Shown one piece after another: positions 9,744 to 25,335 of a stretch of 64,000 nt of DNA (position 1 is the stretch's first letter; every line of letters starts with the position of its first letter). The notes under the pieces were generated by a model. The model made no database searches, was not told the origin of the DNA, and saw only the letters and a list, made by a program, of their open reading frames with translations. The translations under genes were made by a program, and so were the position numbers. This DNA comes from a virus (taxonomy: Duplodnaviria; Caudoviricetes): the IMG/VR virus record IMGVR_UViG_3300024331_000152, positions 32,001-96,000 of that record; one strand, given 5' to 3'.

Positions 9744-9744
9744 T

Positions 9745-10731: not shown

Positions 10732-10933
10732 CGGCTGGCCGAAGCATGTAGTGAATGGCGTCAGATATTCTGTCCATAACGAAGGTGAGTTCAACGGCAC
10801 GACGACGTGGATGGTAAAGCGCTACAACAACCCGAACGATGACGGCAATTACGTTGAGTGTCTGTTCTCTAGCGTCACGAAGGATGAGCTGATAGCGATC
10901 CAGCAGGCGATCAATACCGGATCGTGGGGATGA
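10718..10933 (+). CDS. Hypothetical protein
   Basis: GAGGTAGGAG RBS, coupled to upstream ORF. Confidence 0.55.
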   Translation: MAFDNGWPKHVVNGVRYSVHNEGEFNGTTTWMVKRYNNPNDDGNYVECLFSSVTKDELIAIQQAINTGSWG

Positions 10934-10954
10934 CCGCAGAAGAACTGCGGGACT

Positions 10955-12310
10955 TTAGAACCCGCGCACTTGTGATGCAGGAGCAGCAATATCTCGCGCT
11001 GGCATTTGAGGCGGCAAAGGCGGGGCATTTGCGGCTTTGCGATGAACTCTATCGCTGGGCTGCTGACCGTCATCAGAATCTACAACTTTATCTCGGATTG
11101 GTTCCCGACCAAACAGAAGCGCCTGCGCATCGGCAATAGTCGCCTTTTCGGGAAGCTGGCTGCGAAAATCGTCGTAATTCGAAATAGAGAAAACTTCTTT
11201 TGCTCGCTGGTGAAACCGGCGCAACTCTTCCTCGCGCGCCCAAGTAATATGAAACTCGCGGTCGATTCTTCCCTTGCGCACAAGAGCTGAATCGAGTCTC
11301 TCGCGATGATTCGTAGTGATAATCAGCAATCGTCCCTCGGTTGCAACTACGCCGTCGATCACATTCAGCAGATCCGAAGCGACGATTCCTTTGGTTACCT
11401 CGTCGCCGTCTTTGTCGAATTTGCGCTCCCGGGCGGCAGGCACGCAGTCCACATCCTCGATGAGCAGGATCGACCGATTACAAACGGTATTGATGAGCCT
11501 CTGTAGATCTTCAGAACGTTCAACGCCAGCGACGTTGAGGTAATAAAGTGGAAGCTCTAAATGCGTGGCAAGCGCTTGCACTAAGGATGATTTTCCTGTT
11601 CCCGGAGGACCATAGAAGCAGAAGCCGCGCCGCCATGGGATACCGAGCATTCGGTACTTGTCTTTGATCGACAAAAATTGCTCAATGTCGGTGACAATGG
11701 ATTCTATTTCACCGGCAGGCAGATAGATCGTATCGAGAGAGCGCGGCGACAACTCGCGGCTATCCCACCAGCTCCCTTCGTTGCGGTAGATGAAGAGTTT
11801 CTTTTCGAGTTGGGCATAGAACTCGGCCCGGGCCTCGTCAAGTAAATCAGTGATGATTTGGCGATCCAGCGTTCCCCAGATCGACACTTGGATCGTGCGG
11901 CGCGGACGGAATAGAGACGTCGCACCTTCAGCTATCGCCCCCGGCGTTCCCGGGGCAGAGGCTTCCTTATCGGATGTAAAAATTAGGAGATACCGCTGCT
12001 TGAAGCGCAGATAATAGGTTCCGTAGCGCGGGATCGTTTGATAGTCCATGCCGTCGATGGTGCGCTTGCGCCGGAGCATGAGATCTGTGATGCGCTTCTC
12101 GCGAATACGCTTTTCGGCCCATAGAGCAATCCACATGTAGGCTTCTTCGGTCTCATGCTCTTCGACCGCAACGGCGACATGCAGCTTTCGGAGGAAGTAG
12201 CCAATCGAATAGTTGTAGACGAGAGACCAGAAGTTTCGGAGCCAGCCCAGAGCTACTCCGCCCACCACGAGCAGCCATGGCGAGTCTTTCATCAGTTTTT
12301 GCCAATCCAT
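10955..12310 (-). CDS. BCS1-like membrane-anchored AAA+ ATPase
   Basis: N-terminal TM, GIPWRRGFCFYGPPGTGKSS Walker A, ILLIEDVD Walker B, TTNHRERLDSALVRKGRID. Confidence 0.9.
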   Translation of the reverse strand: MDWQKLMKDSPWLLVVGGVALGWLRNFWSLVYNYSIGYFLRKLHVAVAVEEHETEEAYMWIALWAEKRIREKRITDLMLRRKRTIDGMDYQTIPRYGTYYLRFKQRYLLIFTSDKEASAPGTPGAIAEGATSLFRPRRTIQVSIWGTLDRQIITDLLDEARAEFYAQLEKKLFIYRNEGSWWDSRELSPRSLDTIYLPAGEIESIVTDIEQFLSIKDKYRMLGIPWRRGFCFYGPPGTGKSSLVQALATHLELPLYYLNVAGVERSEDLQRLINTVCNRSILLIEDVDCVPAARERKFDKDGDEVTKGIVASDLLNVIDGVVATEGRLLIITTNHRERLDSALVRKGRIDREFHITWAREEELRRFHQRAKEVFSISNYDDFRSQLPEKATIADAQALLFGREPIRDKVVDSDDGQQPSDRVHRKAANAPPLPPQMPARDIAAPASQVRGF

Positions 12311-12420
12311 TCCGAAATAATAGCGCAGATTTTCCAGAATCTGGAAACGATGCTAAAGTGGTGAGCATTCCGTGGTTCCGGCAACACGTTAAGCAACCGG
12401 AAAATCTGAAAGGTAATCTG

Positions 12421-12858
12421 ATGAATACAAAAGCTACGGCTGGTGTAGATATTTCCGCGTCATCTCCCTCTACAACATTCAGCACGAATGGCCCGGTATC
12501 GAGTTCGGCATCGTCTTTCGATGTTGCTGAAGACTTTCCAATGATCCCACTGCTTGCAAGACCAGAATATGTGCCAGTAGTAACGCACATCGTGAATGCA
12601 AATGTGATACCTAATCTGCGCGTCCTTCTCGCATCAGCGCTGGGTGCTATCGATGCAGCAATCCCAAACAAGGACCAAAATCGTGCGGTGCGGCATATTG
12701 TTCGTACTCAATTCGACGCCGCCTATGCTGATATCTTGCAACGCGCATACCCGACGTGCCAGTTCGGATGGGAAAGCTGTTATGCGGTCGAGCCGGAATT
12801 ATCTCGGTCGAAAGCTTTCAGCGGTCTGACAGTGAGTGCCGGGTCTCCTTCAAAATAA
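12421..12858 (+). CDS. Hypothetical protein
   Basis: Long ORF, start MNTKAT after AAAGGT. Confidence 0.5.
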   Translation: MNTKATAGVDISASSPSTTFSTNGPVSSSASSFDVAEDFPMIPLLARPEYVPVVTHIVNANVIPNLRVLLASALGAIDAAIPNKDQNRAVRHIVRTQFDAAYADILQRAYPTCQFGWESCYAVEPELSRSKAFSGLTVSAGSPSK

Positions 12859-12895
12859 TTTGCGAGCTTAGTGAAACCTGTGGTATTTTAGAGTT

Positions 12896-12970
12896 CGCGG
12901 TCGAGTGGATGGGTCCCACGATGCCCTCATAAGGCATAGATTGCAGGTTCGAACCCTGTGACCGCAACCA
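12896..12970 (+). tRNA. tRNA-Met(CAT), initiator-like
   Basis: ATGCC-CTCATAA-GGCAT, C1:A72 mismatch, CCA. Confidence 0.8.
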
Positions 12971-12980
12971 ATTGACTGGA

Positions 12981-13210
12981 ATCCTCGGGGCAGCGTTGAA
13001 GCGTTACTAGTACGTGGAGCTTGGTAGAGATTCGCCTTGCAGTATCGTCCCCGATAGGGCAAGGATGTGAGGCCGTCACAACTGGAGAGAGAACCGCCGA
13101 TCTCTGACAACGGCTCAGCGGTGACGCTCAGGAGAGACTGAGGATCTTCAAGGAGGACCCGGCATGACGCTTGATTACCGAGATTGCGAATCGCGAGAGT
13201 CGGTCCTCGA
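12981..13210 (+). ncRNA. Candidate structured ncRNA between tRNAs
   Basis: No credible ORF; ATCCTCGG(12981)/CTGAGGAT(13138) closing helix, CCTTGC/GCAAGG and GAGGACC/GGTCCTC helices. Confidence 0.45.
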
Positions 13211-13216
13211 ATCTTT

Positions 13217-13291
13217 GGCTGTGTAGCTCAACCAGAGCACCCGTCTTCAAAACGGTAGGTTGCAGGTATACAACCCCTGTCACAGCCACCA
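13217..13291 (+). tRNA. tRNA with UCA anticodon (UGA-reading; atypical T-loop)
   Basis: CCGT-CTTCAAA-ACGG, acceptor GGCTGTG/CACAGCC, ACCA. Confidence 0.65.
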
Positions 13292-13314
13292 ATTCTCTCG
13301 ACAAAATTTCAAAC

Positions 13315-13390
13315 GGGGTAGTAGCATAGCGGCTAATGCACTTGATTGTCGATCAAGCCATCGCGGGTTCGAGTCCCGTCTGCCCCGCCA
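13315..13390 (+). tRNA. tRNA-Asp(GTC)
   Basis: CTTGA-TTGTCGA-TCAAG, G73 CCA. Confidence 0.85.
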
Positions 13391-13408
13391 TAATTTTCAG
13401 GAGATTCT

Positions 13409-13621
13409 GTGAGCAAGTGGAGCCCAGTAGGTGAAAACGAAACCGGCTTCACTGAAGGTGGAGACCACGGAGAATTCAACTGTGGAAACTGTGTTCACAT
13501 GAAGGATGGCTGCACGCATCCGATCATGAAGGCGATCTCGCAGCGGCCTCGCAAAAAGAACGGAAACGTTGAGGTAGACGAAGATGACTGCTGCACGTTC
13601 GTACGCAGACCGGGAGACTAG
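13409..13621 (+). CDS. Small Cys-rich protein (HiPIP-like cysteine pattern)
   Basis: CGNCVHM..C...VDEDDCC; AGGAG RBS. Confidence 0.45.
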   Translation: MSKWSPVGENETGFTEGGDHGEFNCGNCVHMKDGCTHPIMKAISQRPRKKNGNVEVDEDDCCTFVRRPGD

Positions 13622-14140
13622 ATGATCTGTCCTGATTGCGACAAAGCGGAGATGGTCGAGACTGAAGTGACGCGCGACTTTAAAGTCGGTCGCAAGGAAC
13701 CTGTCACGTTGTCGGCTACGGCGGTAGTTGAGATCTGCCCAGCGTGTAAGTGTGAACTGCACGGCTGGCAGATGGAGAGAGCGAAGTCGCTCGCGATGTC
13801 TAAATGGATGAAGGAAAACCACAGGGTTGACATTAACCCGCCAGAAGATTTGCGGATCGCTCACGCGGCGTCATCGTTTCACCTCAAACAGCTTGAGCAT
13901 GAAGGTAAGGCAGCATGTTTCTATTGCCTACGTTTCTTCAACATCGAGGAGATTGAGGACTGGATCGACAATGAGCAGACGGCGCTCTGTCCGAAGTGTG
14001 GTATTGACTCCGTGATTCCAGAGACGGACAATGTAACACCAGAGTTCCTAAAGCGCATGCAGCAATATTGGTTTGATGCAGGCGCAGACCTTGCAAAGAA
14101 AGATTGTCAGGAGCCTGCTCCTGCAATGCCGGGAACGTAA
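13622..14140 (+). CDS. Double zinc-ribbon protein
   Basis: CPDC..CPAC N-terminal ribbon plus ACFYC...TALCPKCGIDSVI domain. Confidence 0.6.
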   Translation: MICPDCDKAEMVETEVTRDFKVGRKEPVTLSATAVVEICPACKCELHGWQMERAKSLAMSKWMKENHRVDINPPEDLRIAHAASSFHLKQLEHEGKAACFYCLRFFNIEEIEDWIDNEQTALCPKCGIDSVIPETDNVTPEFLKRMQQYWFDAGADLAKKDCQEPAPAMPGT

Positions 14141-14418
14141 TGATGGATAGCGTTCAGGACTGACCTTGCCATCCAACTAACCTTTGGAGATAAAACCCAA
14201 TGGAAGTCAAACGGAAAGAAATTGAAACGCTGATCGAAAAGTCAGCTAAAAGCACACGATTCTGGAGACGCTATGCGTTTTTCTCAGGCGGCATGTAATT
14301 GTGCAAATGCCATACGCTGCTTGCTCGACGCAGAACTCGAACAAGCTTGTTCCGGCCCGAAGTAGACCGGTGGTTGCACCCCGCCTCGCCGCGAGGCTAA
14401 GTCGCGGCAGAGATTTAA

Positions 14419-14735
14419 GCATGTAGAAGGCAACTAATCAGATTTCGGACGTGGGTTCGAATCCCACCGAGTCCACCAATCAGCTAACGCGCCGGGGCGA
14501 AACGCCTTGGTTCAACGAAAGTTCAGCTAAGAGTTAAAGCTGGTCCGTTGGCTGATTTGTGGGCTCGCCAAGGTTTCGACGGGATCAGAAGACGTTGTGC
14601 AGTTCATGCCGAGTGCTGTGGCCTGCGTTAAGGGACACGGAAAAAACAAATGCAGATGCTTCGGCACTGCCGATGGCAGCCTAAAAACTGACGTCTGAGG
14701 GTGGCCGCAATACTCATCAAAGAACCATGCGGCAC
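14419..14735 (+). ncRNA. ssrA: Permuted (two-piece) tmRNA, tag (A)ADASALPMAA
   Basis: 3' acceptor piece TTTCGGACGTGGGTTCGAATCCCACCGAGTCCACCA (ends 14478) precedes 5' piece GGGCTCGCCAAGGTTTCGAC (14561); G3-U70; tag ORF 14652-14684; outer boundaries approximate. Confidence 0.85.
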
Positions 14736-14745
14736 AAATACGCTA

Positions 14746-15150
14746 ATGCCTTACAAAGACAAAATTAAGCGTGCAGAGTATTGGAGGAATTATGTAATTG
14801 CCAACCCTCACGTCAAAACCAGAACTAAGACCGACAGGAAGCGCGAGAACGGCGAGGGCTGGGAGATTAAGAACCGCATCCCCTTCAAGATCTCGTGCTG
14901 CGATTGTGGTCTCGTCCATAATCTGGTTATCGTAGCTCCGAATACGAGAAAGGGCGCAGTCCTTGGCATCGCTGCGGAACGAAACGAGCGCGCAACCGGA
15001 CAGAAGCGCAGACATTTAGTGACGAACAAGCCAGAGACGCCTGAGGAGGCGGCGCGCAGACTAGGCGTGTCGAAGAAACGTCTCGAATCAATTCGCGAAA
15101 TTATGTCGCGCCCTGTGTTACGCTCAAAGCGAAAACACTTGAATCCCTAA
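14746..15150 (+). CDS. Hypothetical protein with CCDCGLVH zinc motif
   Basis: FKISCCDCGLVH motif common in phage proteins. Confidence 0.6.
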   Translation: MPYKDKIKRAEYWRNYVIANPHVKTRTKTDRKRENGEGWEIKNRIPFKISCCDCGLVHNLVIVAPNTRKGAVLGIAAERNERATGQKRRHLVTNKPETPEEAARRLGVSKKRLESIREIMSRPVLRSKRKHLNP

Positions 15151-15222
15151 GGCGTTCAGACCGCGAATCTGAGCGTCTCTTTTTTTCTTGACAACAGGCG
15201 CAGAGTTTCGTACCTTCTGTTC

Positions 15223-15711
15223 ATGCATTGAATCGCCAACACGCATTCATACGTTTTCGTCCGGTACGATCTCTCCCTCGCACAATCTGTAATCCAGTCG
15301 AGCCATGCTACCCATTCGATGGCTAATGGGCTCTCCCAGAGCCCTGAAGTTCCGCATATCGTTCTGATCGGCGTTCCAGACGTCAAGGCCCTTGAACGGG
15401 TCATTCAAAAACTCCGCGACAATCACATTGAATTTGCTGCCTTCGATGAGCCTGACGATAATCTCGGCTTGACGGCGGTCGCTACTGTTCCTCTCAACGA
15501 AGAGCAGAGACTTGTGTTCCAGAACTACAAGATCTGGACTGAAGAAGAATACTTTTACACGCGCGTAGCTCAGTGGTCAGAGCACTCCGGGAGGTTGACG
15601 GAGAGGTCGGCTGTTCGAATCGGTCCGCGCGTACCATGGGCGGTTCATTCGGTGATGTATCCGGTTCGAATCCGGTATCGCCCACCATGCGCGGTTAGCT
15701 CGACTATGTAG
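15223..15711 (+). CDS. PTH2-like peptidyl-tRNA hydrolase with in-frame UGA at codon 3
   Basis: ATG CAT TGA then in-frame YVFVRYDLSLAQSVIQSSHA...IVLIGV...FDEPDDNLGLTAVAT; leaderless promoter TTGACA-17-TACCTT. Confidence 0.7.
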
Positions 15712-15737
15712 AGGGGAAGATCCTCGCCCGCGCTCCA
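15559..15737 (+). ncRNA. Three tandem tRNA-like elements with CCA ends (15559-15636, 15638-15687, 15689-15737)
   Basis: Acceptor stems plus CCA; first has a 9-nt anticodon loop, second is essentially acceptor plus T-arm, third is truncated. Confidence 0.65.
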
Positions 15738-15743
15738 ATTCGA

Positions 15744-15819
15744 GCGCTCGTGGCTCAGCGGCAGAGCGCCGGTCTTCAAAACCGGGTCAGCGTGGGTTCG
15801 AACCTCACCGAGCGCTCCA
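15744..15819 (+). tRNA. tRNA with UCA anticodon (UGA-reading), Gly-like acceptor
   Basis: CCGGT-CTTCAAA-ACCGG; G1-C72, C2-G71, G3-C70, U73; short variable loop. Confidence 0.8.
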
Positions 15820-15926
15820 CTGAAATTTGAGGTAATATATTTCTGCGCGCCGAGCGCGAGACCTGATCAGATCCGTCTCAACGGGCTGGCACGATGTCCA
15901 GCGCATCTAGCAAAAGGAGAATCAAG

Positions 15927-16277
15927 ATGCGTACTCGTTGCAAGTTCCGTGTTGTTGGAATTGAAGATGTTGATCACCAGATCCAGAAAAGGATCTACAA
16001 AGATCAGGTAAGCGCTGAGGAATATGCGGCAATCGAGAGTTCGGAATGGCCAGACCGTAATGGATTTGGGGATATCAGAATGTACAAACTCGTTGGCCTC
16101 GGCCATGCCCAGAACATCCGGCTCGCCGCTCAGTATGATCCATCAATCCCCGAAGATCAGCGCTTTATGGAAGCAACGCCGACTGGAGAGTTGAAGTTTT
16201 ACGTCAGCAACCCAGCAGTGATCGGCGGCTTTCAGATCGGCAAAAATTACTACATTGATCTGATACCATGTGGCTAG
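15927..16277 (+). CDS. Conserved phage hypothetical protein
   Basis: MRTRCKF...EDQRFMEATPTGELKFYVSNPAV..FQIGKNYYID; AAGGAG RBS. Confidence 0.65.
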   Translation: MRTRCKFRVVGIEDVDHQIQKRIYKDQVSAEEYAAIESSEWPDRNGFGDIRMYKLVGLGHAQNIRLAAQYDPSIPEDQRFMEATPTGELKFYVSNPAVIGGFQIGKNYYIDLIPCG

Positions 16278-16305
16278 CAGACCAGTGCCCGACCCTACAC
16301 AGGTC

Positions 16306-16338
16306 AAAAGGCCCATCCAGTTTCTGGACGGGCCTTTT
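16306..16338. terminator. Bidirectional intrinsic terminator between convergent genes
   Basis: AAAAGGCCC-ATCCAGTTTCTGGAC-GGGCCTTTT. Confidence 0.65.
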
Positions 16339-16690
16339 ACTTTACTCGTATCTTCGCTAGCGGTCCGGACGCAATACTCGTGTTCATTTGTCCAGCGATC
16401 ATCTGCTTGGTCTGCACGATGTAGCAGGCCGAGGAATTCTTCGGAATCGCATCAACGTATGCCAGTAGCGTGGTAGGAGATTGCGCGTTGAGCGGGGCGT
16501 AGTTTTTTGCGCTCGTAGCCGGACAGGTTGTTCCTGAGATCATCACACGGCTTACGATGTAGCTGCAAGCTGGCCACCCCGTACCGCAAGTGACAGGCAG
16601 TTGCCATGAGATCGTAACCTTGACGTTGGGCGGCGCGGCTGACGCGTACGTAAAGACGAAAACACCGATGAGAATGATCTTTCGCAGCAT
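16337..16690 (-). CDS. Secreted FN3-like small protein
   Basis: Signal peptide then VTISW..SYIVSR..LNAQSPT..YVD..CYIVQT. Confidence 0.55.
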   Translation of the reverse strand: MLRKIILIGVFVFTYASAAPPNVKVTISWQLPVTCGTGWPACSYIVSRVMISGTTCPATSAKNYAPLNAQSPTTLLAYVDAIPKNSSACYIVQTKQMIAGQMNTSIASGPLAKIRVK

Positions 16691-16843
16691 CGGGAACCCT
16701 CAGAAAATCGTCCAGATTCTGGACCGTGAGCGCAGTATAATACGAAAAGCCAACGGGGCGTCTCTCTAAAGTGGAGACGAATAGTATCAGGTCTTGCCGT
16801 CCGTGACCTGTTTCAAGGCAAATCAAATTGAGACAGGTGAAAA

Positions 16844-17320
16844 ATGGCAGGATACGTGTACCTTATCGGTACGCCAACGTTTCGTTGGTATAAAATCGGC
16901 AAATCCCGCGTTCCTGAGATCAGGATTCAAGATCTCGGAATTCTTCTCCCTTTTAAAATTGAAATTGTTGGTATCTGGAAAGCGCACGACCATACCGCTC
17001 TTGAGTCTCTACTACACGAGCGATACGCCGAAAGAAGAATAAACGGTGAGTGGTTTCACTTCTATCGCGCTGAGGTTATGGGGATATTCGCGTCCCTTCC
17101 TGAAGAAGCGAGGATATTTCCGTCTGGAAATTCCGATTCGTTTTTCGCTAAATTTTCGAACATCGAGCGAGATTGCCCGGAAGGCAAGAGACTTCATTTG
17201 TCTACTAGGAGGGTGCGTGGAAACTTTACAGATGAGCAGAGAGCCTACTTGCGACAAAAAGCGATAGAGGAGCATAAAAAGAAAAAAGCGCTACGGGATG
17301 CAAATAAGAGTATGCTTTAA
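16844..17320 (+). CDS. GIY-YIG (T5orf172-like) nuclease
   Basis: GYVYLI..YKIGKS..RIQDL...LESLLHERYAERRINGEWF. Confidence 0.8.
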   Translation: MAGYVYLIGTPTFRWYKIGKSRVPEIRIQDLGILLPFKIEIVGIWKAHDHTALESLLHERYAERRINGEWFHFYRAEVMGIFASLPEEARIFPSGNSDSFFAKFSNIERDCPEGKRLHLSTRRVRGNFTDEQRAYLRQKAIEEHKKKKALRDANKSML

Positions 17321-17402
17321 GCGTCGGGAAACCGACTATCCAGCAGGCTTGCAACGCGATTGTATGGGGCTTTAGTCTGCGGCCCGTTTCAAGGAGAACC
17401 AA

Positions 17403-18266
17403 ATGATGTATATCAAGCATTTCGTCCTCGCCGTGCGCGTCAACGGTAAAATCCTCAAAGAACATGACCAAGTTGTCCACCTCCCTTTCGGAGCTGAGTA
17501 TGAGCTGTTGCTCAAGAACCTCAACTCGCGCCGCGCGATGGTCGGTGTCTCCATTGACGGCAAGCGTACCAGTGATTGTCGTTTCGTAATTCCAGCTAAC
17601 TCGGAGAGCGTTCTTGAGCGCTACGTCAAAAACGGCAACATGGACTCCGGGAACCGCTTCAAGTTCATCGAACGCACCTCGGCAGTTGAAGAACATCGCG
17701 GAGTGGGATCGGACGACGGTATCGTGCGCGCCGAGTTTTGGGCAGAGCGAGAAGTTGTCACGCTTCCTCGCACAATCATCAATGATTCATGGCTTCCTTC
17801 ATCTCCGTATGATCGCAGGCGTCGCACGCTTGGAAATTCTGGAGGCTTTAGAAGTTTCAGCGGCATCACAGGACAAAGTGTTCCATCTGATGATGTGTCG
17901 TGCATGTACGGTAGTGTTCAAGGTGGAGCTGAGGCCCCGGGATCGAGCTTTAACGTAGGCTCGCTCAATGCGCAGGTGACATACACGTCATCGTTGGGCG
18001 CGGACATGTCGAAGATCGCAGATAACGACGCGGGCATCACCGTCCCGGGCAGCGAGTCGTCGCAGCGCTTCCACTGGACAAACGGCTTCGAGCTGGAGAG
18101 CACAAGCACCGTAATCATACTTCAGCTTCGTGGCGAGATCGGCGGACAGGCTGTTGCTGCGCCGGTCACGGTGGAGTATAAGCCTGTCTGCATCACCTGT
18201 GGCAAGACCAACAAGGGTACCAGCCGTTTCTGTGACCAGTGCGGAACGGCATTGCAAATTCTTTAA
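17403..18266 (+). CDS. Hypothetical protein with C-terminal zinc ribbon
   Basis: AAGGAG RBS; CITCG..SRFCDQCG. Confidence 0.65.
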   Translation: MMYIKHFVLAVRVNGKILKEHDQVVHLPFGAEYELLLKNLNSRRAMVGVSIDGKRTSDCRFVIPANSESVLERYVKNGNMDSGNRFKFIERTSAVEEHRGVGSDDGIVRAEFWAEREVVTLPRTIINDSWLPSSPYDRRRRTLGNSGGFRSFSGITGQSVPSDDVSCMYGSVQGGAEAPGSSFNVGSLNAQVTYTSSLGADMSKIADNDAGITVPGSESSQRFHWTNGFELESTSTVIILQLRGEIGGQAVAAPVTVEYKPVCITCGKTNKGTSRFCDQCGTALQIL

Positions 18267-18274
18267 ATAACCTC

Positions 18275-18467
18275 TTGCAATTTGCGCGCATCATAGGTTA
18301 AGGTAGGAAGCGTTATGAAACTCAACCGAGCCAATTCGAACCATTCGTTTAATCCAGCGGCACAACCGCAGGGTACAACGCGTGTGCGTGGCTCGGCCTG
18401 AACAGCATCCTTTAGCAATGCGATGCAGTACAGACCCCCGAGCCTAGATAATAGACTCGGGGGTTTT
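18275..18467 (+). promoter_or_regulatory. Promoter, leader peptide and attenuator of tRNA operon 2
   Basis: TTGCAA-18-TAAGGT; uORF 18315-18401 MKLNRANSNHSFNPAAQPQGTTRVRGSA; terminator ACCCCCGAG/CTCGGGGGT-TTT; GGCTCGG(18390) pairs CCGAGCC at 18326 or 18438. Confidence 0.8.
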
Positions 18468-18474
18468 GATTGGC

Positions 18475-18999
18475 ATGGGAAAGTGGCTGCATCGTGTTTC
18501 GAATATCGATTTTGATTCTCTCACTGGTGATTGCTCTACTTGTGGGCGCGTGAGATTGAAAGTAAAGAAAGGCGGCAGGAGATTTGCATGCGCTGTATCT
18601 GAGCAACGCTGGTGCGATGGACAAAGCGTATCAAAGAGAAGGGCTGCTCGCCGTAGACAAACTAGAAAGTTGCTCGCAAAGCTTCTATCTAGTGGATGTC
18701 GGATATGTCGAGTAGCCAAGAAAGGAATTCATTGTCATCATCTCGATAGTTCCACAAAGAGTTTCAATATTTCGCAAGGGTATACAGACTGTTCCAGAGA
18801 GCTGTTAATTGCCGAGCTGAAAAAATGTATTGCCGTGTGTCAGCAATGCCATACAAAGATTCACTTCAGGCAGTTTGTAGTATCTGAGGATTTGATTTCT
18901 GAGTGGAATAGAGATGTAGATGTTTTATTCACGCGTAGCTCAATGGTAGAGCCCTGCACTGTTAATGCAGTCATTGGGGGTTCGATTCCCTCCGCGTGA
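18475..18999 (+). CDS. HNH endonuclease
   Basis: GCRIC..IHCHHLD..K.FNISQ..AELKKCIAVCQQCH; 3' end runs into tRNA-Asn. Confidence 0.75.
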   Translation: MGKWLHRVSNIDFDSLTGDCSTCGRVRLKVKKGGRRFACAVSEQRWCDGQSVSKRRAARRRQTRKLLAKLLSSGCRICRVAKKGIHCHHLDSSTKSFNISQGYTDCSRELLIAELKKCIAVCQQCHTKIHFRQFVVSEDLISEWNRDVDVLFTRSSMVEPCTVNAVIGGSIPSA

Positions 19000-19003
19000 G
19001 CCA
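18929..19003 (+). tRNA. tRNA-Asn(GTT)
   Basis: CTGCA-CTGTTAA-TGCAG, CCA. Confidence 0.85.
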
Positions 19004-19010
19004 AATTAGT

Positions 19011-19084
19011 TGCGTCTTCGTTCAGTGGCAGGACGGTTGACTCTGAATCAACACACGGGAGTTCGATTCTCTCAGACGCAGCCA
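19011..19084 (+). tRNA. tRNA-Gln(CTG)
   Basis: GTTGA-CTCTGAA-TCAAC, CCA. Confidence 0.85.
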
Positions 19085-19092
19085 AATTTTGT

Positions 19093-19168
19093 TGGGAGAT
19101 GGCCGAGCGGCGTAGGCACGAGCCTTTGGATCTCGTACAGGCTGGTTCAACTCCAGCTCTCCCAGCCA
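19093..19168 (+). tRNA. tRNA-Gln(TTG)
   Basis: CTTTGGA loop, U1-A72, CCA. Confidence 0.85.
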
Positions 19169-19169
19169 T

Positions 19170-19245
19170 GCGGATGTAGTTCAATTGGCAGAACGTTGGA
19201 GTGCCACTCCAAAGGTTGCCGGATCGTTGCCGGTCATCCGCTCCA
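19170..19245 (+). tRNA. tRNA-Gly(GCC)
   Basis: TTGGA-GTGCCAC-TCCAA, U73 CCA. Confidence 0.8.
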
Positions 19246-19282
19246 GTTTGAGGTGAGAGGAATGCATTGAATTGATGATGAC

Positions 19283-19358
19283 GCTGCCGTAGCTCAAGTG
19301 GTAGAGCACCTGTCTCGTAAACAGGAGGTTGGGACTTCGAGTGTCCCCGGTAGCTCCA
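19283..19358 (+). tRNA. tRNA-Thr(CGT)
   Basis: CCTGT-CTCGTAA-ACAGG, CCA. Confidence 0.85.
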
Positions 19359-19378
19359 GTTTTCCCTGAGGTGATCTT

Positions 19379-19915
19379 ATGATCCGTAGAACAGTTTTGA
19401 TGCTGAACGCGAGCTACGAACCGCTGCGGATCATCAGCGCAAAGAAGTCCCTGACACTCTTAACCAAGGGTGTTGCCGTGGTGGAGGTACCAACCAAGAT
19501 CCAAGTCCACGCGGGGATCTACTTGCCGAGTGTTATTCGGTTGCGTCATTTCCGCAACGTGCCGCACAAGAGGCCAGTGCCGTCGAGAAAGAACATCTTC
19601 ACCAGAGACGGTTTTCGCTGCTTGTATTGCGGTGCCAAGGCTCCGAAAGTAGTGCTCGAACTTGAGCACATCGTTCCGAGATCGAGAGGCGGAGCAAACG
19701 CTTGGGACAACCTTTGTGCATCTTGTCACGATTGCAACCAGAAGAAGCGTGACAGGACTCCGGAGGAAGCAGGCATGAAGTTGATTCACAGACCTCTGCC
19801 CGCGACCGTACACACCGGCAGGTTCGTCTTGAAGACGATGGGTAACGAAATTGCAGAGTGGGGTCCGTTTCTATGGAAGGACTCTAAGGGCGAACAGAAG
19901 TTGCAGTTCGCATAA
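19379..19915 (+). CDS. HNH endonuclease
   Basis: [56 protein letters not shown]. Confidence 0.9.
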
Positions 19916-19975
19916 CAAGAAATAGCGCCGGGTTATGGATTGACAATTAAGCTCCGTGTGAAATAAAACGGTCTA

Positions 19976-20368
19976 ATGCCATACAGTGACCCGGCGAAAC
20001 AAAAAGAAGCTCTTCGGCGATGGTATCGCAGAGTTGTTCGTAAAAGACGCACAGATTGGTTTAAAGGAAAGCAATGTGCGACTTGTGGAAGTACGCGAAG
20101 ACTTGAATTGGATCATGTTGATCCAGCGCTGAAGGTGGATCATAAAATTTGGTCATGGAGCGAGAAAAGACGCACTGAAGAGCTTAATAAATGTGTTCCA
20201 CGGTGTAGAACTTGTCACATCGAGAGATCGGCAGAGCAACAACGAAAGCCATTGGTTCACGGAACGCGCGATGGATATATGTGGCATCGTTGTCGCTGTA
20301 GGGAATGCGTTAAAGCTGCGTCGCTCTACCGTAATGAGCAGCGACGTTTGAAGGGACGAAAGAATTAA
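19976..20368 (+). CDS. HNH endonuclease
   Basis: CATCGS..LELDHVDP..EELNKCVPRCRTCH, HGT..Y..CRCREC. Confidence 0.8.
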   Translation: MPYSDPAKQKEALRRWYRRVVRKRRTDWFKGKQCATCGSTRRLELDHVDPALKVDHKIWSWSEKRRTEELNKCVPRCRTCHIERSAEQQRKPLVHGTRDGYMWHRCRCRECVKAASLYRNEQRRLKGRKN

Positions 20369-20369
20369 A

Positions 20370-20444
20370 GCACTCGAAGCATAGTCGGAGATGCCCTCGG
20401 CTTGTATCCGAGAGAACAGAGTTCGAATCTCTGCGAGTGCTCCA
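20370..20444 (+). tRNA. tRNA-Thr(TGT)
   Basis: CTCGG-CTTGTAT-CCGAG, CCA. Confidence 0.85.
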
Positions 20445-20510
20445 AAGATGTCGGATGTGGCCCCGAGTTCGAGGAGGAATAGGCGAGAGCTTATCGGGGC
20501 TCAGGTTTAT

Positions 20511-20586
20511 GGAGCTATTGGCCGAGCGGTTTAGGCGCGGGACTGTGACCCCCGACACGAGTGTTCAACTCACTCATAGCTCCCCA
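20511..20586 (+). tRNA. tRNA-His(GTG)
   Basis: CTGTGAC loop, G-1:C73. Confidence 0.85.
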
Positions 20587-20590
20587 ATTT

Positions 20591-20665
20591 GGGGCTGTAG
20601 TGCTAATGGGAACACACTGGTTTTGCACTCCAGAGTTGAGAGTTCGATTCTCTCCAGCTCCACCA
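20591..20665 (+). tRNA. tRNA-Ala(TGC)
   Basis: G3-U70, TTTGCAC loop, CCA. Confidence 0.85.
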
Positions 20666-20699
20666 AATTTACGCAGGCGCTGAGCCCTCTCTGTTCTAT

Positions 20700-20862
20700 A
20701 CGTGACACGCTCAGGGAAGAAGATCAAAGGTGTCGCGTATATGCTCGCTTTTGGTTACAACCTTGAAAGAATTAAGGCAGAAATCGCAAAATGCGTCGTA
20801 CGCTGCGCGAACTGTCACCGCCGCCGAACGGCGAAGGTTTTAGGAAATTGGAAGTTGCACCA
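20700..20862 (+). pseudogene. Remnant of an HNH endonuclease
   Basis: Frame reading LERIKAEIAKCVVRCANCHRRRTAK with no N-terminal half. Confidence 0.6.
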
Positions 20863-20863
20863 T

Positions 20864-20940
20864 CAGGGCGTAGCCTAGCGGCTTCAGGCACTCGCTTCGG
20901 GAGCGAGATGACGTGAGTTCGAATCTCACCGCCCCGACCA
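20864..20940 (+). tRNA. tRNA-Pro(CGG)
   Basis: CTCGC-TTCGGGA-GCGAG, CCA. Confidence 0.85.
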
Positions 20941-20986
20941 TTTTAACGAGCCGGTTTTCATTAAAGAAATCGGCTGAAAATTTTAA

Positions 20987-21064
20987 CCGGGTTTAGCCTA
21001 GTCTGGCTCAGGCACCTGCTTTGGGAGCAGGACGACGGGGGTTCAAATCCCTCAGCCCGGACCA
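20987..21064 (+). tRNA. tRNA-Pro(TGG)
   Basis: CCTGC-TTTGGGA-GCAGG, CCA. Confidence 0.85.
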
Positions 21065-21065
21065 T

Positions 21066-21154
21066 GCACCCGTAGCCTAGCGGATTCAGGTAACGGTCTA
21101 CGAAACCGTCGAGGGAAACCTCTTACGCAGGTTCGATTCCTGCCGGGTGCTCCA
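21066..21154 (+). tRNA. tRNA-Arg(ACG) with long variable arm
   Basis: ACGGT-CTACGAA-ACCGT, GAGG-GAAA-CCTC extra arm. Confidence 0.8.
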
Positions 21155-21169
21155 TAATTGTAAGTGTTC

Positions 21170-21224
21170 GGCGCGGTGAGGCTGGGCGTGGCACGGTGAG
21201 GTTTGGTTCGGTATGGTTTGGCAT
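21170..21224 (+). repeat. GGY-NN pentamer mini-array (11 perfect units), putative guide RNA
   Basis: GGCGC GGTGA GGCTG GGCGT GGCAC GGTGA GGTTT GGTTC GGTAT GGTTT GGCAT. Confidence 0.85.
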
Positions 21225-21250
21225 TCTTGCCATGAGGAGGGTTATGCGAA

Positions 21251-21655
21251 TTGAAAAGGACATTTGGTCAGCGAGCTGCTGACTGGGTTACTGAAGCAAG
21301 TGGTAGCTGGCCGTTCATTCTGTGGTCAGTTGTTCTTGGCGTACTCTGGGTCTTGTCGAATGTGAGCAAGGTCCTTGTCTTCGATCCGTATCCTTTCCTG
21401 TTTTTGAACTGGGTGCTGACTGTGATCAGCACGTTGCAATCCCCGCTCATCATGCTGTCGCAGAATCGGCAGAATGAAACTGATCGCGAGCGCGTAGATA
21501 TGATCGTCCAGAAGCTGGACGATCATATCCGGGAAATTAAATTGCGCGCATGGCGAAGTTGTGGTAGGGTAGTCAAGTTGGGCTCAGGCCCGAGATTGAT
21601 CTTTGAAATCAAGTTTCCGTGGGTTGTAAACATGGATGGCCTTAAAAGATCCTGA
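21251..21655 (+). CDS. DUF1003-family membrane protein
   Basis: TFGQRAADWV..GSWPFI, FDPYPFLFLN..LQSPLIMLSQNRQ..DR. Confidence 0.85.
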   Translation: MKRTFGQRAADWVTEASGSWPFILWSVVLGVLWVLSNVSKVLVFDPYPFLFLNWVLTVISTLQSPLIMLSQNRQNETDRERVDMIVQKLDDHIREIKLRAWRSCGRVVKLGSGPRLIFEIKFPWVVNMDGLKRS

Positions 21656-21830
21656 CGTTAGGTTAGGCTCCGAAGCGTCCGGTCCACGGGATCAAGTTTC
21701 CGCTGACAGTGTTGCTTACATGGCAGGGTAACCTGCATTTCACTACGAATGAAAAACCGGGGCAACCCGGGTGTACCCGAAAGGGTTGCAGCACGACACC
21801 AGCGGAGAAAGTTTGGGTTGACTTGTTTGC
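21550..21830 (+). ncRNA. Candidate structured ncRNA
   Basis: Follows TAAATT-GCGCGC promoter motif; nested helices AGTCAA/TTGACT, TTCCGTGG/CCACGGGA, TCCGCTG/CAGCGGA, GNRA hairpins. Confidence 0.45.
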
Positions 21831-21831
21831 A

Positions 21832-21900
21832 TACATGGTAGCTCATTTGGTAGAGCATTCGCCTCTTAAGCGAAGGGTAGTCGGTTCAATTCCGAGTCGC
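21832..21900 (+). pseudogene. tRNA-Lys(CTT) pseudogene
   Basis: D, anticodon (TTCGC-CTCTTAA-GCGAA) and T arms present; acceptor stem and CCA missing. Confidence 0.6.
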
Positions 21901-22118
21901 AGAACGTCTCTGTACCTGAGTACGTTGATGACAATCTTCGCGCCATCAAGCGTGAGATCGAGAGCCGTCAGGCTGACCGTCGTGCGGCTCGTGTACGCGA
22001 GTTGAAGTCGCAGCGCGCCGGTCTTGCAACCGCTCAGGAGAAGCGGGAGGCCATCGAGAAGGAGCTTGCCTCACTCGGCGAGCCTGTCTAGCCATCGTCC
22101 AGAAACTGGAAAGGCCCG

Positions 22119-22340
22119 CTATGTGCGGGCCTTCTTTTTGTTTGCCTGCTCCAGCTTCTTGCGGGCACGTTCCTTGCTGATAGCGAGGTTCAGTGCGCTG
22201 GTGTACGAGAGGCAGTAGATAGCACGCGTGCCCTTGGCGCGCAGTTCCATCCAGTCAGCCTTGAACTCGACTACGATGGAGCGGGTCTTACCCCGCTCCC
22301 ATACGCAGTTCTCAGTCTCGACGACATCTTGAGGGGGCAC
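22119..22340 (-). CDS. Small basic hypothetical protein
   Basis: IVVEFK..MELRAKGTR..Y.LSY phage motif. Confidence 0.5.
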   Translation of the reverse strand: MPPQDVVETENCVWERGKTRSIVVEFKADWMELRAKGTRAIYCLSYTSALNLAISKERARKKLEQANKKKART

Positions 22341-22468
22341 ACGCGGTACTCAACCGAACCCATCACAAACGTACAGCAAGCGCTTGAGAGATACGGCATC
22401 AAGAACGTGCACGCGGGTCATCTGGAGAAGCTTGCCGAGGTATTTGGGATTGCGGCGAAAAAAGAAGC

Positions 22469-22628
22469 TTGCAATTTGCGCGCATCCTGAGTTAAGCTCT
22501 ATTTCGTTATGCAGAGAACTATAGCCATGTCGATCACCAAAGGGACCAAGAGGGTCATTTGGGGAGGCGTGTCTTAGGGGTCTGCACGAGTAGGTTTCAT
22601 CAGACCCCGACTCAGGTCGGGGTTTTTT
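22469..22628 (+). promoter_or_regulatory. Promoter, leader peptide and attenuator of tRNA operon 3
   Basis: TTGCAA-18-TAAGCT; uORF 22509-22577 MQRTIAMSITKGTKRVIWGGVS; terminator ACCCCGAC-TCAG-GTCGGGGT-T5; antiterminator GGGGTCTG(22577)/CAGACCCC(22601). Confidence 0.8.
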
Positions 22629-22646
22629 GTTGTTTGACAAGTTTAT

Positions 22647-22716
22647 AGGGGATGATCTGGGATCGACGAGGTCTCCAAAACCTCACAGCGGAGTTCAATT
22701 CTCCGATCCCCTGCCA
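22647..22716 (+). tRNA. tRNA-Trp(CCA)
   Basis: GAGGT-CTCCAAA-ACCTC, G73 CCA. Confidence 0.85.
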
Positions 22717-22719
22717 TTT

Positions 22720-22796
22720 GCCAGCGAAGCAGAAGTGGATATTGCGCGCGTCTCATAAGCGCGTTGTAGTGGGTTCGAGTCCCACCGTTGGCACCA
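22720..22796 (+). tRNA. tRNA-Met/Ile2(CAT)
   Basis: CGCGT-CTCATAA-GCGCG, CCA. Confidence 0.8.
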
Positions 22797-22864
22797 AGTT
22801 CACAGCGGTGTTCGCCTTACTCTGACGGCGCAATACCGTCCCGCTGTGAATCCAGTTTCTGGAC

Positions 22865-22944
22865 GCACGTGTAGCTGCTAGTCGGTATGTAGCAGTCCCC
22901 TTATAAGGGACCGGTTGTGGGTTCGACACCCGCCACGTGCACCA
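22865..22944 (+). tRNA. tRNA-Ile(TAT)
   Basis: GTCCC-CTTATAA-GGGAC, CCA. Confidence 0.8.
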
Positions 22945-22995
22945 AAATTAGCATCAAACCTGTTACGTCACCGGGAGACTGACAGGAGGAGAGCT

Positions 22996-23202
22996 ATGCT
23001 CATTACCCTGTTTTGGATCATTGCAGTTCTCGTTGTGGCTGGTCTTCTGTTGTACCTGATCAACACGATCCCGGGAATCGATCCAACGATCCACGCACTG
23101 ATCAGGGCTGTTGTGATCATCGTCTGCGTGGTCTTTGTGCTGTACTTTGTGTTCTCGTTGTTTAGCGGAGTGGCAATTCCAAGTCCGCACTTTACGAGGT
23201 AG
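22996..23202 (+). CDS. Small two-TM membrane protein
   Basis: AGGAGGAG RBS; two hydrophobic helices around NTIPGIDP. Confidence 0.65.
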   Translation: MLITLFWIIAVLVVAGLLLYLINTIPGIDPTIHALIRAVVIIVCVVFVLYFVFSLFSGVAIPSPHFTR

Positions 23203-23207
23203 TTTTT

Positions 23208-23282
23208 GGGCTGTAAGCTTTGTCGGCGAAGCAATCGACTCTTAATCGATAGAGCAGGGTTCGATTCCCTGACGGCCCACCA
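23208..23282 (+). tRNA. tRNA-Lys(CTT)
   Basis: ATCGA-CTCTTAA-TCGAT, CCA. Confidence 0.85.
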
Positions 23283-23340
23283 AATTTTGCGAAGGAGAAG
23301 TGAGATGCGAAAACAGAAAGATGACCCAGATAAACGAATT

Positions 23341-23416
23341 GGGGTCGTCGCATAGAGGCAACTGCAACGGACTTTTAATCCGAATGACGTGAGTTCGAAT
23401 CTCACCGGCCCCACCA
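23341..23416 (+). tRNA. tRNA-Lys(TTT)
   Basis: CGGA-CTTTTAA-TCCG, CCA. Confidence 0.85.
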
Positions 23417-23425
23417 TAGTTTTTT

Positions 23426-23502
23426 GCTGGCGTAACTCAGACGGACAGAGTGCCTGTCTTCTAAACAGGAAGCCGCTGGTTCGACTCCAGCCGTCAGCAC
23501 CA
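23426..23502 (+). tRNA. tRNA-Arg(TCT)
   Basis: CCTGT-CTTCTAA-ACAGG, CCA. Confidence 0.85.
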
Positions 23503-23503
23503 T

Positions 23504-23579
23504 GGCCCCTTAGCTCAGTCGGAAGAGCGGATCGGTCCTAACGATAAGGTCGGGAGTTCGAATCTCTCAGGGGTCACCA
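23504..23579 (+). tRNA. tRNA-Arg(CCT)
   Basis: ATCG-GTCCTAA-CGAT, CCA. Confidence 0.8.
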
Positions 23580-23585
23580 AGTTTT

Positions 23586-23662
23586 GCTGCCGTATCGGCC
23601 TCGCCTCCGAAGCGAGATCCCGTAGGTGGATAAGGCTGGTTCGAATCCAGTCGGCAGCTCCA
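23586..23662 (+). tRNA. D-armless tRNA-Arg(CCG)-like RNA
   Basis: Acceptor, CTCGC-CTCCGAA-GCGAG, long variable region, T-arm, CCA; D-arm replaced by 7 nt. Confidence 0.6.
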
Positions 23663-23667
23663 GTTTT

Positions 23668-23742
23668 GCGGATGTAGATCAACGGTAGATCGGGTGTCTT
23701 ACAAGCACTTCGTCGTGGGTTCAACTCCTACCATCCGCACCA
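23668..23742 (+). tRNA. tRNA-Val(TAC)
   Basis: GGTGT-CTTACAA-GCACT, CCA. Confidence 0.85.
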
Positions 23743-24220
23743 ACTTGTCGTGATCGAGTTCCCAATGGTGATTACGGCACAAGCCGACAAGATTATTAGG
23801 GCGATTAACGATTCCTAATGTCGTAGATTCGGCGAACTCACAAACGGGAGTGAGATGACAACAATCAACGTAGAGGTTGTAGCCGCAGATGGCGCATTTC
23901 TTCAAGAGTCCCGCTCTTAAAGCAACGCTCCTTGCATGAGATCGCACTACAGTATCGTAGGCGTTTCGAGATCCGGACTTTTTAAGATCTGCTAGGGTGA
24001 CAGATTCAAAATCTCGGCGACGGCAATCGCGACAACTTTTAACCCGATAGCGGTCTAGTATTTTGCCGCATTTTGGGCATGAATATATCTTTCGCGCATA
24101 CCCTTTCCAAGGGGTTCTAATTCTTTCTTTATTGTTGTAGATGGCCGCACATGACGAATTACAAAAACGTGGATTATTTGTTGGAACGTCGCAGTTGGCG
24201 CAGGTACGACGAAAGTTCAT
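23699..24220 (-). CDS. HNH endonuclease inserted antisense in the tRNA operon
   Basis: FCNSSCAA, CAICGY..VDCCHL...NNLVGLCRNHHWELD. Confidence 0.85.
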   Translation of the reverse strand: MNFRRTCANCDVPTNNPRFCNSSCAAIYNNKERIRTPWKGYARKIYSCPKCGKILDRYRVKSCRDCRRRDFESVTLADLKKSGSRNAYDTVVRSHARSVALRAGLLKKCAICGYNLYVDCCHLTPVCEFAESTTLGIVNRPNNLVGLCRNHHWELDHDKLVRMVGVEPTTKCL

Positions 24221-24347
24221 AGAAAGATGGTACCGGAGCTGTAGACAACGGCACCACCTTTTTAAAGAAGTAGCACAGGTTATCGTGCGAAAGAGTCATT
24301 CCTTATTCTGGACAAGACAAGGACTGGCTGTATGTTCAAAATTGAAC

Positions 24348-24424
24348 GCTGCCGTAGCTCAGTTGGCCAGAGCACACCCTTGGTAAGGGTGAGGTCGTCA
24401 GTTCGAAACTGACCGGTAGCTCCA
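24348..24424 (+). tRNA. tRNA-Thr(GGT)
   Basis: CACCC-TTGGTAA-GGGTG, CCA. Confidence 0.9.
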
Positions 24425-24430
24425 TATTGT

Positions 24431-24506
24431 TGGCGGATAGCTCAGGTGGTCAGAGCACGCGACCGATAATCGCGAGGCCGGAGTTCAACTCTCCGTCCGC
24501 CAACCA
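24431..24506 (+). tRNA. tRNA-Ile(GAT)
   Basis: CGCGA-CCGATAA-TCGCG, CCA. Confidence 0.85.
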
Positions 24507-24512
24507 AAGTTA

Positions 24513-24596
24513 GCGGGGGTCGCTCAGTGGTAGAGCCGCTGCCTTCCAAGCAGCCGACCTTGTGTCATGCGGGTTCGAATCCCGTCCCCCGCTCCA
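24513..24596 (+). tRNA. tRNA-Gly(TCC) with extended variable region
   Basis: GCTGC-CTTCCAA-GCAGC, U73 CCA. Confidence 0.8.
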
Positions 24597-25335
24597 AAGC
24601 TTTCAAGATCGCTTGGGCGTCACTATTATAGAAGCCACTCGAATTGAGACAGTTGAATTCGAGGACGTAAATATCCTCTCCAACTAAACAGAGATCCATC
24701 ACTACGGTCGGGTGCGGAAGCCAATCTTTCGCGCAGTCTGCGGCGGCTTCGAATACCCACTCGTACACAGTCTCCCGGATGCGACGGACTCCGTTGTGCC
24801 GGTATTGCGATCCAGCTACTACAACACCATCGACAACAAAGAAACGCCACTCCTGAGTAATCTCCCTTACTGGGCTAATCAGCATCTCGTCTTCGCCGTT
24901 CGGCTCTGTCTGTTCAATAAGCCACCAGTTGCGGTCTGCGGGTTCAAGAACCATTCCCGTATGGAGCTTATCTTTTACCGACTTCACGAAGACTGGTTCG
25001 GCTATCCACTCACTGCGCAGCTCAGCAGCCGTAATGGTCTTGATTTCCTTGTTTAGCATGCGCGGGTGCTTCCATGTGCGGGGATCGAACATACCGGGCC
25101 TGTAGAAGGCTCCCGGGCTCATCAGAGACGGCGCAAGGGAAGCCAACAGCGTAGAACCATAGACAAGCGTCGGCTGCAAGAGATCGAAGCCAGCAGGGAT
25201 TATCAGCTCATGCGAAAAGGGTACTACCTTCACTGTCTCGTAAGACATGCCGAGCGCTTGTAGCGCATCGGTCATCTGTTGAGTATTCGTATCGAGGATG
25301 CCGAATCCTTCTGAGTGCTCGACTAGCCATTGCAT
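24565..25335 (-). CDS. ATP-grasp (DUF4343/R2K-like) protein
   Basis: PVFVKS..K..TG, EWRFFVVDG.VV..SQY, VMDLC..VLEFNCLNSSGFY. Confidence 0.8.
   Translation of the reverse strand: MQWLVEHSEGFGILDTNTQQMTDALQALGMSYETVKVVPFSHELIIPAGFDLLQPTLVYGSTLLASLAPSLMSPGAFYRPGMFDPRTWKHPRMLNKEIKTITAAELRSEWIAEPVFVKSVKDKLHTGMVLEPADRNWWLIEQTEPNGEDEMLISPVREITQEWRFFVVDGVVVAGSQYRHNGVRRIRETVYEWVFEAAADCAKDWLPHPTVVMDLCLVGEDIYVLEFNCLNSSGFYNSDAQAILKALERGTGFEPA

Follow-up and report, generated by a model that had tools for sequence, protein, structure and literature searches.

VIPR, which was described only in 2026, consists of Vipr, a RAMP protein, and its guide, the vrRNA, and has been reported for Escherichia phage SUSP1 and a prophage of P. 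fulva (10.64898/2026.04.26.720920, 10.64898/2026.04.26.720927). Vipr coats a vrRNA of 9-16 GGYNN repeats in such a way that each GGY is hidden and the NN pairs are exposed; these pairs bind DNA while skipping every third base, usually the wobble base (the 1-nt-skip rule), and the targets are competing phages and satellites (10.64898/2026.04.26.720920). The filament and its gapped R-loop extend 3' to 5' from the tail of the vrRNA (10.64898/2026.04.26.720927). In published VIPR, conserved 3' tails have been described for type II only, and type II silences rather than cuts. Natural targets, which are known mainly for enterobacterial phages and satellites, have been called at a threshold of 0.8 identity over all informative positions (10.64898/2026.04.26.720920, 10.64898/2026.10.15.759431), and published self-searches returned no self-targets at or above 0.8 (10.64898/2026.04.26.720920). 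A class of solo vrRNAs is recognized by a distance of more than 20 kb from vipr; their self score is lower than their rival score, which has been read as avoidance of autoimmunity, and those of satellites load the Vipr of a rival to redirect or dilute it (10.64898/2026.10.15.759431). The published solo vrRNAs are found on vipr-less elements, where they replace a deleted vipr-vap1 or lie in non-coding DNA of satellites, and are directed against vipr, other vrRNAs, satellites and host REP elements.

Here we describe a GGYNN tract that shares several features with SUSP1 VIPR: the phage encodes a Vipr homolog with the GGY-contact residues, the tandem GGYNN units fall in the 9-16 range, the one skipped base lies on the codon wobble, and the predicted target belongs to a competing phage. 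Unlike in SUSP1, the guide has no recognizable 3' tail or pseudoknot, lies within a tRNA operon 18.5 kb from the nearest vipr gene and pairs with its best target through 8 of its 11 units (0.73, below the 0.8 cut-off). It resembles the solo or orphan vrRNAs of F5 satellites and VIPR-null phages of the SUSP1 family in standing alone and in matching self less well than a rival (10.64898/2026.10.15.759431); unlike these, it is carried by a VIPR-positive phage and sits beside a recoded copy of a protein-coding target. As it also misses the solo distance rule by 1.5 kb, the term dispersed or orphan vrRNA suits it better than solo vrRNA. VIPR, its code and solo vrRNAs were already known; a guide adjoining a recoded protein-coding target on a VIPR-positive phage, here in a tRNA operon, is not described in the VIPR preprints (10.64898/2026.04.26.720920, 10.64898/2026.04.26.720927, 10.64898/2026.10.15.759431).

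The window, that is, the whole stretch of 64,000 nt analysed here, comprises bases 32001-96000 of a 142.8-kb virus record that was judged complete and represents an uncultured phage; its sequence is present in full in a soil metagenome run. Two Vipr-like genes are found in it.

39753-40421, + strand: Vipr-like RAMP gene 1 (phrog_4652), with pentamer tracts over the next 500 nt or so
56156-56797, + strand: Vipr-like RAMP gene 2 (phrog_4652), with GGYNN arrays on either side at 55922-56131 and 56810-56885

The two paralogs share 22% identity. The profile of the gene 2 family (A2) matched SUSP1 Vipr (PDB 36pp_D) with an E value of 4.3e-15, positions 25-196 of the profile aligning with positions 4-188 of the chain, and the residues that contact GGY are kept: H17 of SUSP1 aligns with a nearly invariant H, R138 with the R of 'RP', which is invariant, and D177-W178-R179 with D-F-R, with positions counted by hand from the printed HMMER alignment. 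The AF2 model of gene 2 (pLDDT 80) gave Csm3/Cas7 as top Foldseek matches (E 9e-6, TM about 0.53). Vipr of this phage is a distant relative of SUSP1 Vipr, and tblastn matches in Felixounavirus phages were 33-40% identical over 30-36% of the query. Among GenBank phages, a relative of the window Vipr that is close to full length occurs only in phage DSL-LC04 (OR003939.1), in which the gene at 22438-23046 shows 51% identity and is annotated as a 'helix-turn-helix transcriptional regulator'. The accessory gene at 40421-40873 falls into no known family, its atlas matches being viral hypothetical proteins only. GGYNN arrays flank the gene 2 homolog in 29 of 29 IMG/VR relatives, upstream and/or downstream and nearly always on the strand of the gene, and strict GGYNN arrays occur at six places of the 142.8-kb genome, all on the + strand, where block shuffles gave 0-1; the long ones lie on either side of the two phrog_4652 paralogs. 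Other genes in this part of the window include a DnaB-like helicase gene (35683-38370) split by an intein that contains a LAGLIDADG endonuclease domain (Pfam Intein_splicing, LAGLIDADG_3) and an adenylosuccinate-synthetase-like gene at 54577-55842 (phrog_1211, '2-aminooxy adenylosuccinate synthetase', PurZ-like; E 1.5e-55). The PurZ-like gene hints at a 2-aminoadenine (Z) genome, which would change the strength of RNA-guide pairing on phage DNA.

The dispersed guide lies between a tRNA gene and a gene for a DUF1003 membrane protein, and the locus is organized as follows.

21066-21154, + strand: tRNA-Arg(ACG) (ARAGORN; Rfam tRNA 51.7 bits), the last tRNA upstream of the guide
21155-21232, + strand: insertion of about 75 nt (15-nt spacer, 55-nt tract and short 3' flank) in alignment A4 against array-less relatives
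21170-21209, + strand: guide units 1-8, NN = GC GA TG GT AC GA TT TC, spelling A-D-W-V-T-E-F-S by the 1-nt-skip rule
21210-21224, + strand: guide units 9-11 (GGTAT GGTTT GGCAT), 0/6 against the GSW codons of DUF1003 alleles
21234-21253, + strand: Shine-Dalgarno GAGGAGGG and TTG start of DUF1003, conserved among relatives
21251-21655, + strand: DUF1003 membrane-protein gene (Pfam PF06210, E 1.4e-21; alignment A3)
21278-21301, + strand: the phage's own copy of the target site, with the ADWVTE codons at units 1-6 and GCA AGT (Ala, Ser) as codons 7-8

An earlier sequence-only reading of this DNA had described eleven perfect GGYNN units behind tRNA-Arg(ACG), about 18 kb from the nearest RAMP gene. 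This description was confirmed: the 55 nt at 21170-21224 (+) read as eleven perfect units with the NN series GC GA TG GT AC GA TT TC AT TT AT, and the nearest Vipr-like gene is the one at 39753-40421. The tract is in the transcribed-strand orientation, starts 15 nt after the end of the tRNA, and 26 nt separate its end from the TTG start of DUF1003. The only promoter-like site in the vicinity is at 20763 and no terminator separates the tract from the DUF1003 gene; therefore, guide and gene probably belong to one transcript. The 75-nt insert contains no ORF, the RNA fold of 21155-21262 is no better than that of shuffles (z = -0.88), Rfam gave no match there, and a SUSP1-like conserved tail or pseudoknot was not found at the tract. 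Units 9-11 may nevertheless form a tail-like 3' end; the last three units of other tracts in the window are A/T-rich too, an enrichment that is weak and too little for defining a tail. The tRNA region as a whole holds 36 tRNA genes and a tmRNA inside 16 kb (8800-24600), including the 89-nt tRNA-Arg(ACG) and a tRNA-SeC(TCA) call. On the other side of the guide, a stretch without assigned function (21560-21830) precedes a partial Rfam tRNA match at 21838-21898 (37.9 bits, model positions 7-64, anticodon loop CTT-like), which was not called by ARAGORN.

The six first units correspond in frame to the DUF1003 codons at 21278-21295 (GCt GAc TGg GTt ACt GAa), matching codon positions 1 and 2 at 12 of 12 bases, exactly as the earlier reading had reported, and its proposal that the NN pairs read these positions and skip the wobble is equal to the published 1-nt-skip rule (10.64898/2026.04.26.720920). 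This site, which starts 54 nt downstream of the guide, is the best match for the guide in the whole genome. The local match also stands up to permutation: a run of six within 500 nt on either side, on the + strand, was obtained in 0 of 3000 unit-order shuffles, and of 559 windows of 1.1 kb elsewhere in the 142.8-kb genome none equalled the local guide score. It is the position of the match that matters, because a run of six anywhere in the genome arises in 13% of shuffles. Units 7-11 match the phage's own gene at 0 of 10 bases, and since the whole guide then reaches 12/22 (0.55), below 0.8, the own DUF1003 gene is not a target by the published criteria.

The decisive evidence for the DUF1003 match, as judged from sequence comparison, comes from the alleles of relatives. 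The homolog sequence ADWVTEFS, which had been predicted from the guide, exists in six related alleles (L087, L088, L089, L090, L094 and X2 record 4); all read GCN GAY TGG GTN ACN GAR TTY TCY, and where a search for homologs matching at least eight units had been suggested, these six match eight consecutive units, 1-8, at 16 of 16 bases. The first five are loci from five different samples, with upstream sequence present, and were found in the protein collection (JGI and Logan assemblies); the sixth is a Logan run contig, none is from IMG/VR, and most target-bearing relatives are short contigs. Among the five loci the skipped wobble bases differ (GAC/GAT, GTA/GTC, ACG/ACT/ACA, TTC/TTT, TCT/TCC). 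In each of these five relatives the best run of the guide is eight and lies at the DUF1003 site, a length that 0 of 5000 shuffled guides reached. All five carry tRNA-Arg(ACG) directly before DUF1003, with the ribosome-binding site about 5-15 nt after the tRNA and the array absent; alignment A4, in which the insertion was delimited, sets the window against L087, L088, L089, L090 and L009. Identity of the guide to any DUF1003 allele tops out at 16/22 (0.73), because units 9-11 match no allele, and these units are without a match because an invariant GSW follows the target codons. Remoter alleles, which have ADA or ADI or a Ser encoded by AGT, match at 12-15 of 22 bases; the complete and syntenic genome G001 has ADAVTEFS with Ser as AGT (13/22) and carries neither vipr nor arrays.

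The phage's own gene departs from its relatives just where the pairing would continue. Its codons 7-8 are GCA AGT where the matching relatives read TTY TCY, so that Phe is replaced by Ala and the Ser codon is switched from TCN to AGT. The closest allele, X2 record 4 (a 193-nt contig with a depth of 2.6), differs from the window at 13 of 176 bases, which include the wobble positions 21289, 21292 and 21295 and five consecutive bases at 21296-21300 (GCA AGT vs TTC TCT), and these five fall on units 7-8. A protein search found 78 DUF1003 homologs; counting the 76 proteins with the motif, the own one included, the phage's protein is the sole case of Ala, and Phe is present in 75 of the 75 others. 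By our arithmetic, the chance of all 4 NN positions of units 7-8 being changed is about 2e-5. Among relatives, the N-terminal 98 residues of DUF1003 are conserved and the C-terminal tail is variable (alignment A3). The earlier suggestion that DUF1003 is the target of the guide is supported, with the qualification that the relatives' allele is a likely target and the phage's own gene, recoded at units 7-8, is not.

Pattern scans were also carried out beyond these alleles. No guide match of at least 19/22 was present in G001, G002, G003, G004 or G006. The exact 22-base pattern was found in no viral contig, no genome contig and one metagenome contig (L056 6029-6060, minus strand); this perfect match was rejected as a target and judged a chance occurrence in an AT-rich, unrelated contig nearly devoid of ORFs. 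For the 8-unit pattern, 16 viral matches in about six sequence groups were obtained, none of them in DUF1003, which is roughly the chance level. Outside the window, a low-complexity stretch of the (GGN)n type at about 136500-136600 of the phage genome (G000:C1) trivially inflates the score of the GG phase for every array and is to be masked in guide-target scans.

The genome contains two further lone tracts.

33406-33490, + strand: second lone tract, in the leader of gene 33525-34184
39141-39205: third lone tract (about 13 units), downstream of the 38401-39138 stop codon and ending in a terminator-like hairpin

When strict 5-nt steps are kept, the tract at 33406 matches 33774-33800 at 17 of 18 bases, gapless and in frame, and scores 14 at its own gene against 8 at the best place elsewhere in the genome. 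It matches its own allele at 17/20 and the allele of the array-less L092 at 19/20. A homologous tract of another phage (L091:674-770) reaches 20/20 on the L092 allele and 16/20 on its own, the changes in the latter being V to I, Y to F and a Ser switch from TCN to AGT. By these comparisons, the pattern of a guide beside a recoded target recurs at a second locus and in another phage. The five to six 3' units of the two tracts are conserved between both phages and pair with nothing; as with the DUF1003 guide and its units 9-11, this suggests that the 3' part is tail-like. Homologs of gene 33525-34184 were absent from viral contigs, and the relatives used (L091-L093) were retrieved through the protein collection. 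Upstream of the homolog, L091 and L092 have a gene (L091:139-657, L092:248-769) that matches Pfam Acb2_Tad1_hairpin, an anti-CBASS/Thoeris sponge family. The third lone tract had no notable match within the phage's own genome. Arrays beside vipr genes behave differently from the lone tracts at 21170 and 33406: over 107 such arrays with 1385 units, matches to neighbouring DNA were not enriched, either as perfect runs or with mismatches, and the pooled number of local runs of six was 1 against 0.6 expected. Adjacency is thus a property of lone tracts only, and the earlier generalization that guides lie beside the locus they are directed against is borne out by two of the genome's three lone tracts and not by the vipr-flanking arrays. 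In 20 related virus records, arrays occurred only beside vipr or were absent, with no lone arrays, and the DUF1003 case is therefore not replicable on these records; the closest syntenic records, G001 and G002, had no Vipr match.

The proximity of guide and gene invites an explanation in cis, in which the leader guide would shut off its own DUF1003 through the six matching units once Vipr accumulates. The in-frame 12/12 match at units 1-6, only 54 nt downstream and the genome's best, would fit such autoregulation, as would a probable common transcript with no terminator between guide and gene. However, the relatives' alleles match better (16/22 vs 12/22), and the changes unique to the phage's own gene fall exactly at units 7-8, where they lower the match instead of keeping it. 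Published self-searches found no self-targets at or above 0.8 (10.64898/2026.04.26.720920), and the R-loop grows from the 3' side, on which the own gene is mismatched (10.64898/2026.04.26.720927). We therefore consider cis autoregulation unlikely. Coincidence has to be weighed on the same evidence, the tract being in that case a guide, or a decayed guide, with its true target elsewhere. One local run of six over the 107 pooled arrays is the shuffle level, 13% of shuffles give such a run somewhere in the genome, 22 informative bases at 0.8 would by our arithmetic produce thousands of chance matches in large databases, and L056, unrelated and poor in ORFs, does contain a perfect 22/22 match. What makes coincidence very improbable is the run of eight at the same site in five relatives, which none of the 5000 shuffles gave, together with the unique Phe-to-Ala change and Ser codon switch at guide units 7-8 and the repetition of the pattern at a second locus and in a second phage.

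A lone vrRNA might also serve as a decoy or hijacker that loads the Vipr of a rival phage, redirecting or diluting it, rather than arming the phage's own Vipr. Published satellites use solo vrRNAs in this way (10.64898/2026.10.15.759431), and the tract is far from both vipr genes. Yet this phage owns two vipr genes, the sequence spelled by the guide belongs to a conserved gene of relatives and not to a multi-copy decoy site, and G001, the closest complete relative with a syntenic locus, is without vipr and arrays, so that we regard this role as quite improbable. The remaining possibility is that the tract is not a guide. TRAP binds eleven triplets with 2-nt spacers, and the eleven GG-containing triplets with a 5-nt period just upstream of the ribosome-binding site could be a TRAP-like periodic protein-binding leader or a two-tier G-quadruplex that controls translation of DUF1003. 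In its favour, in an alignment with the closest relative's array, judged by eye, the GG columns are largely kept and many NN positions differ. Such a leader would leave unexplained that the NN spacers spell relatives of the neighbouring gene at 16 of 16 bases, the Vipr proteins of this genome retain the residues that read GGY, and the tract is missing from all relatives with the same gene in alignment A4. The idea of a TRAP-like or G-quadruplex leader that matches the codons by chance was accordingly dropped, on the VIPR literature and the relatives' alleles, and we find it hardly credible.

We therefore favour, with a probability of roughly 0.7, the explanation that 21170-21224 is a dispersed VIPR vrRNA gene directed against the DUF1003 of array-less relatives and linked to a recoded, probably spared allele of the phage's own; guide and resistant gene would, judging from the sequences, probably act together against close relatives. 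We infer the following course of expression, Vipr loading, binding, silencing and self-immunity. The tract is probably transcribed together with the tRNA-Pro/Pro/Arg cluster and the DUF1003 mRNA, and the vrRNA would be released near the 3' end of tRNA-Arg and then loaded with Vipr, one protomer coating each GGY and the NN pairs being left free. Units 1-8 would pair with the template strand of DUF1003 codons 10-17 (ADWVTEFS, with Ser as TCN), leaving out each third base. On a rival genome a gapped R-loop could form as in SUSP1 VIPR, and expression of the DUF1003/tRNA operon would be blocked. The own allele would escape through its mismatches at the 3'-most paired units, where R-loop growth would begin; it is because the recoding hits these units, at which growth of filament and R-loop starts, that the carrier is probably spared. 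Owing to their tight linkage, guide and resistant allele would be inherited together through recombination among co-infecting relatives. Counting against this explanation, no allele pairs with units 9-11, which lie closest to the 3' end, the place of nucleation in SUSP1 complexes.

The arrangement also recalls a known class of selfish elements. Free-standing homing endonucleases of T4-like phages, such as SegB in the tRNA region, cause intronless homing or marker exclusion. SegB is named in PMC13096335. Similar to the genes of these enzymes, the guide looks like a selfish insert between genes of a tRNA cluster, with a predicted site in the adjacent gene of insert-less relatives and an altered site in the carrier. 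In contrast to them, the insert has no endonuclease ORF, and its specificity would be carried by RNA; the comparison is an analogy only. The tRNA region is also home to classical homing-type genes, as HNH-endonuclease-like ORFs (19379-19915 and 19976-20368) interleave its tRNA genes, and such ORFs are likewise present in L087 and L089. Going further, lone vrRNAs could be mobile cassettes of a guide plus a resistant allele, where disabling of, or damage to, the matching allele of a co-infecting relative favours recombinants that copy both the guide and the recoded site. We put this forward tentatively and regard it as rather doubtful. If it were true, lone vrRNAs would be an RNA-guided counterpart of intronless homing, or an allele-by-allele poison-antidote drive across phage genomes, and natural recoding, at the 3'-most paired units and as Ser TCN/AGY switches, would show which mismatch rules VIPR follows.

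In summary, an uncultured 143-kb soil phage carries, in a tRNA operon, a guide that adjoins the very gene it spells; relatives keep this gene intact, and the carrier has it recoded. The loci provide natural evidence on which mismatches may be protective, namely those at the 3'-most paired units and the switch of serine codon family, the TCN/AGY switch being one of the few ways to alter the positions that are read with the amino acid unchanged. A cut-off of 0.8 identity without positional weighting would miss guide-target pairs of this kind. Our results suggest a selection that keeps guide and resistant allele linked, and they bring a homing-like or drive-like role of RNA-guided silencing within reach of testing.
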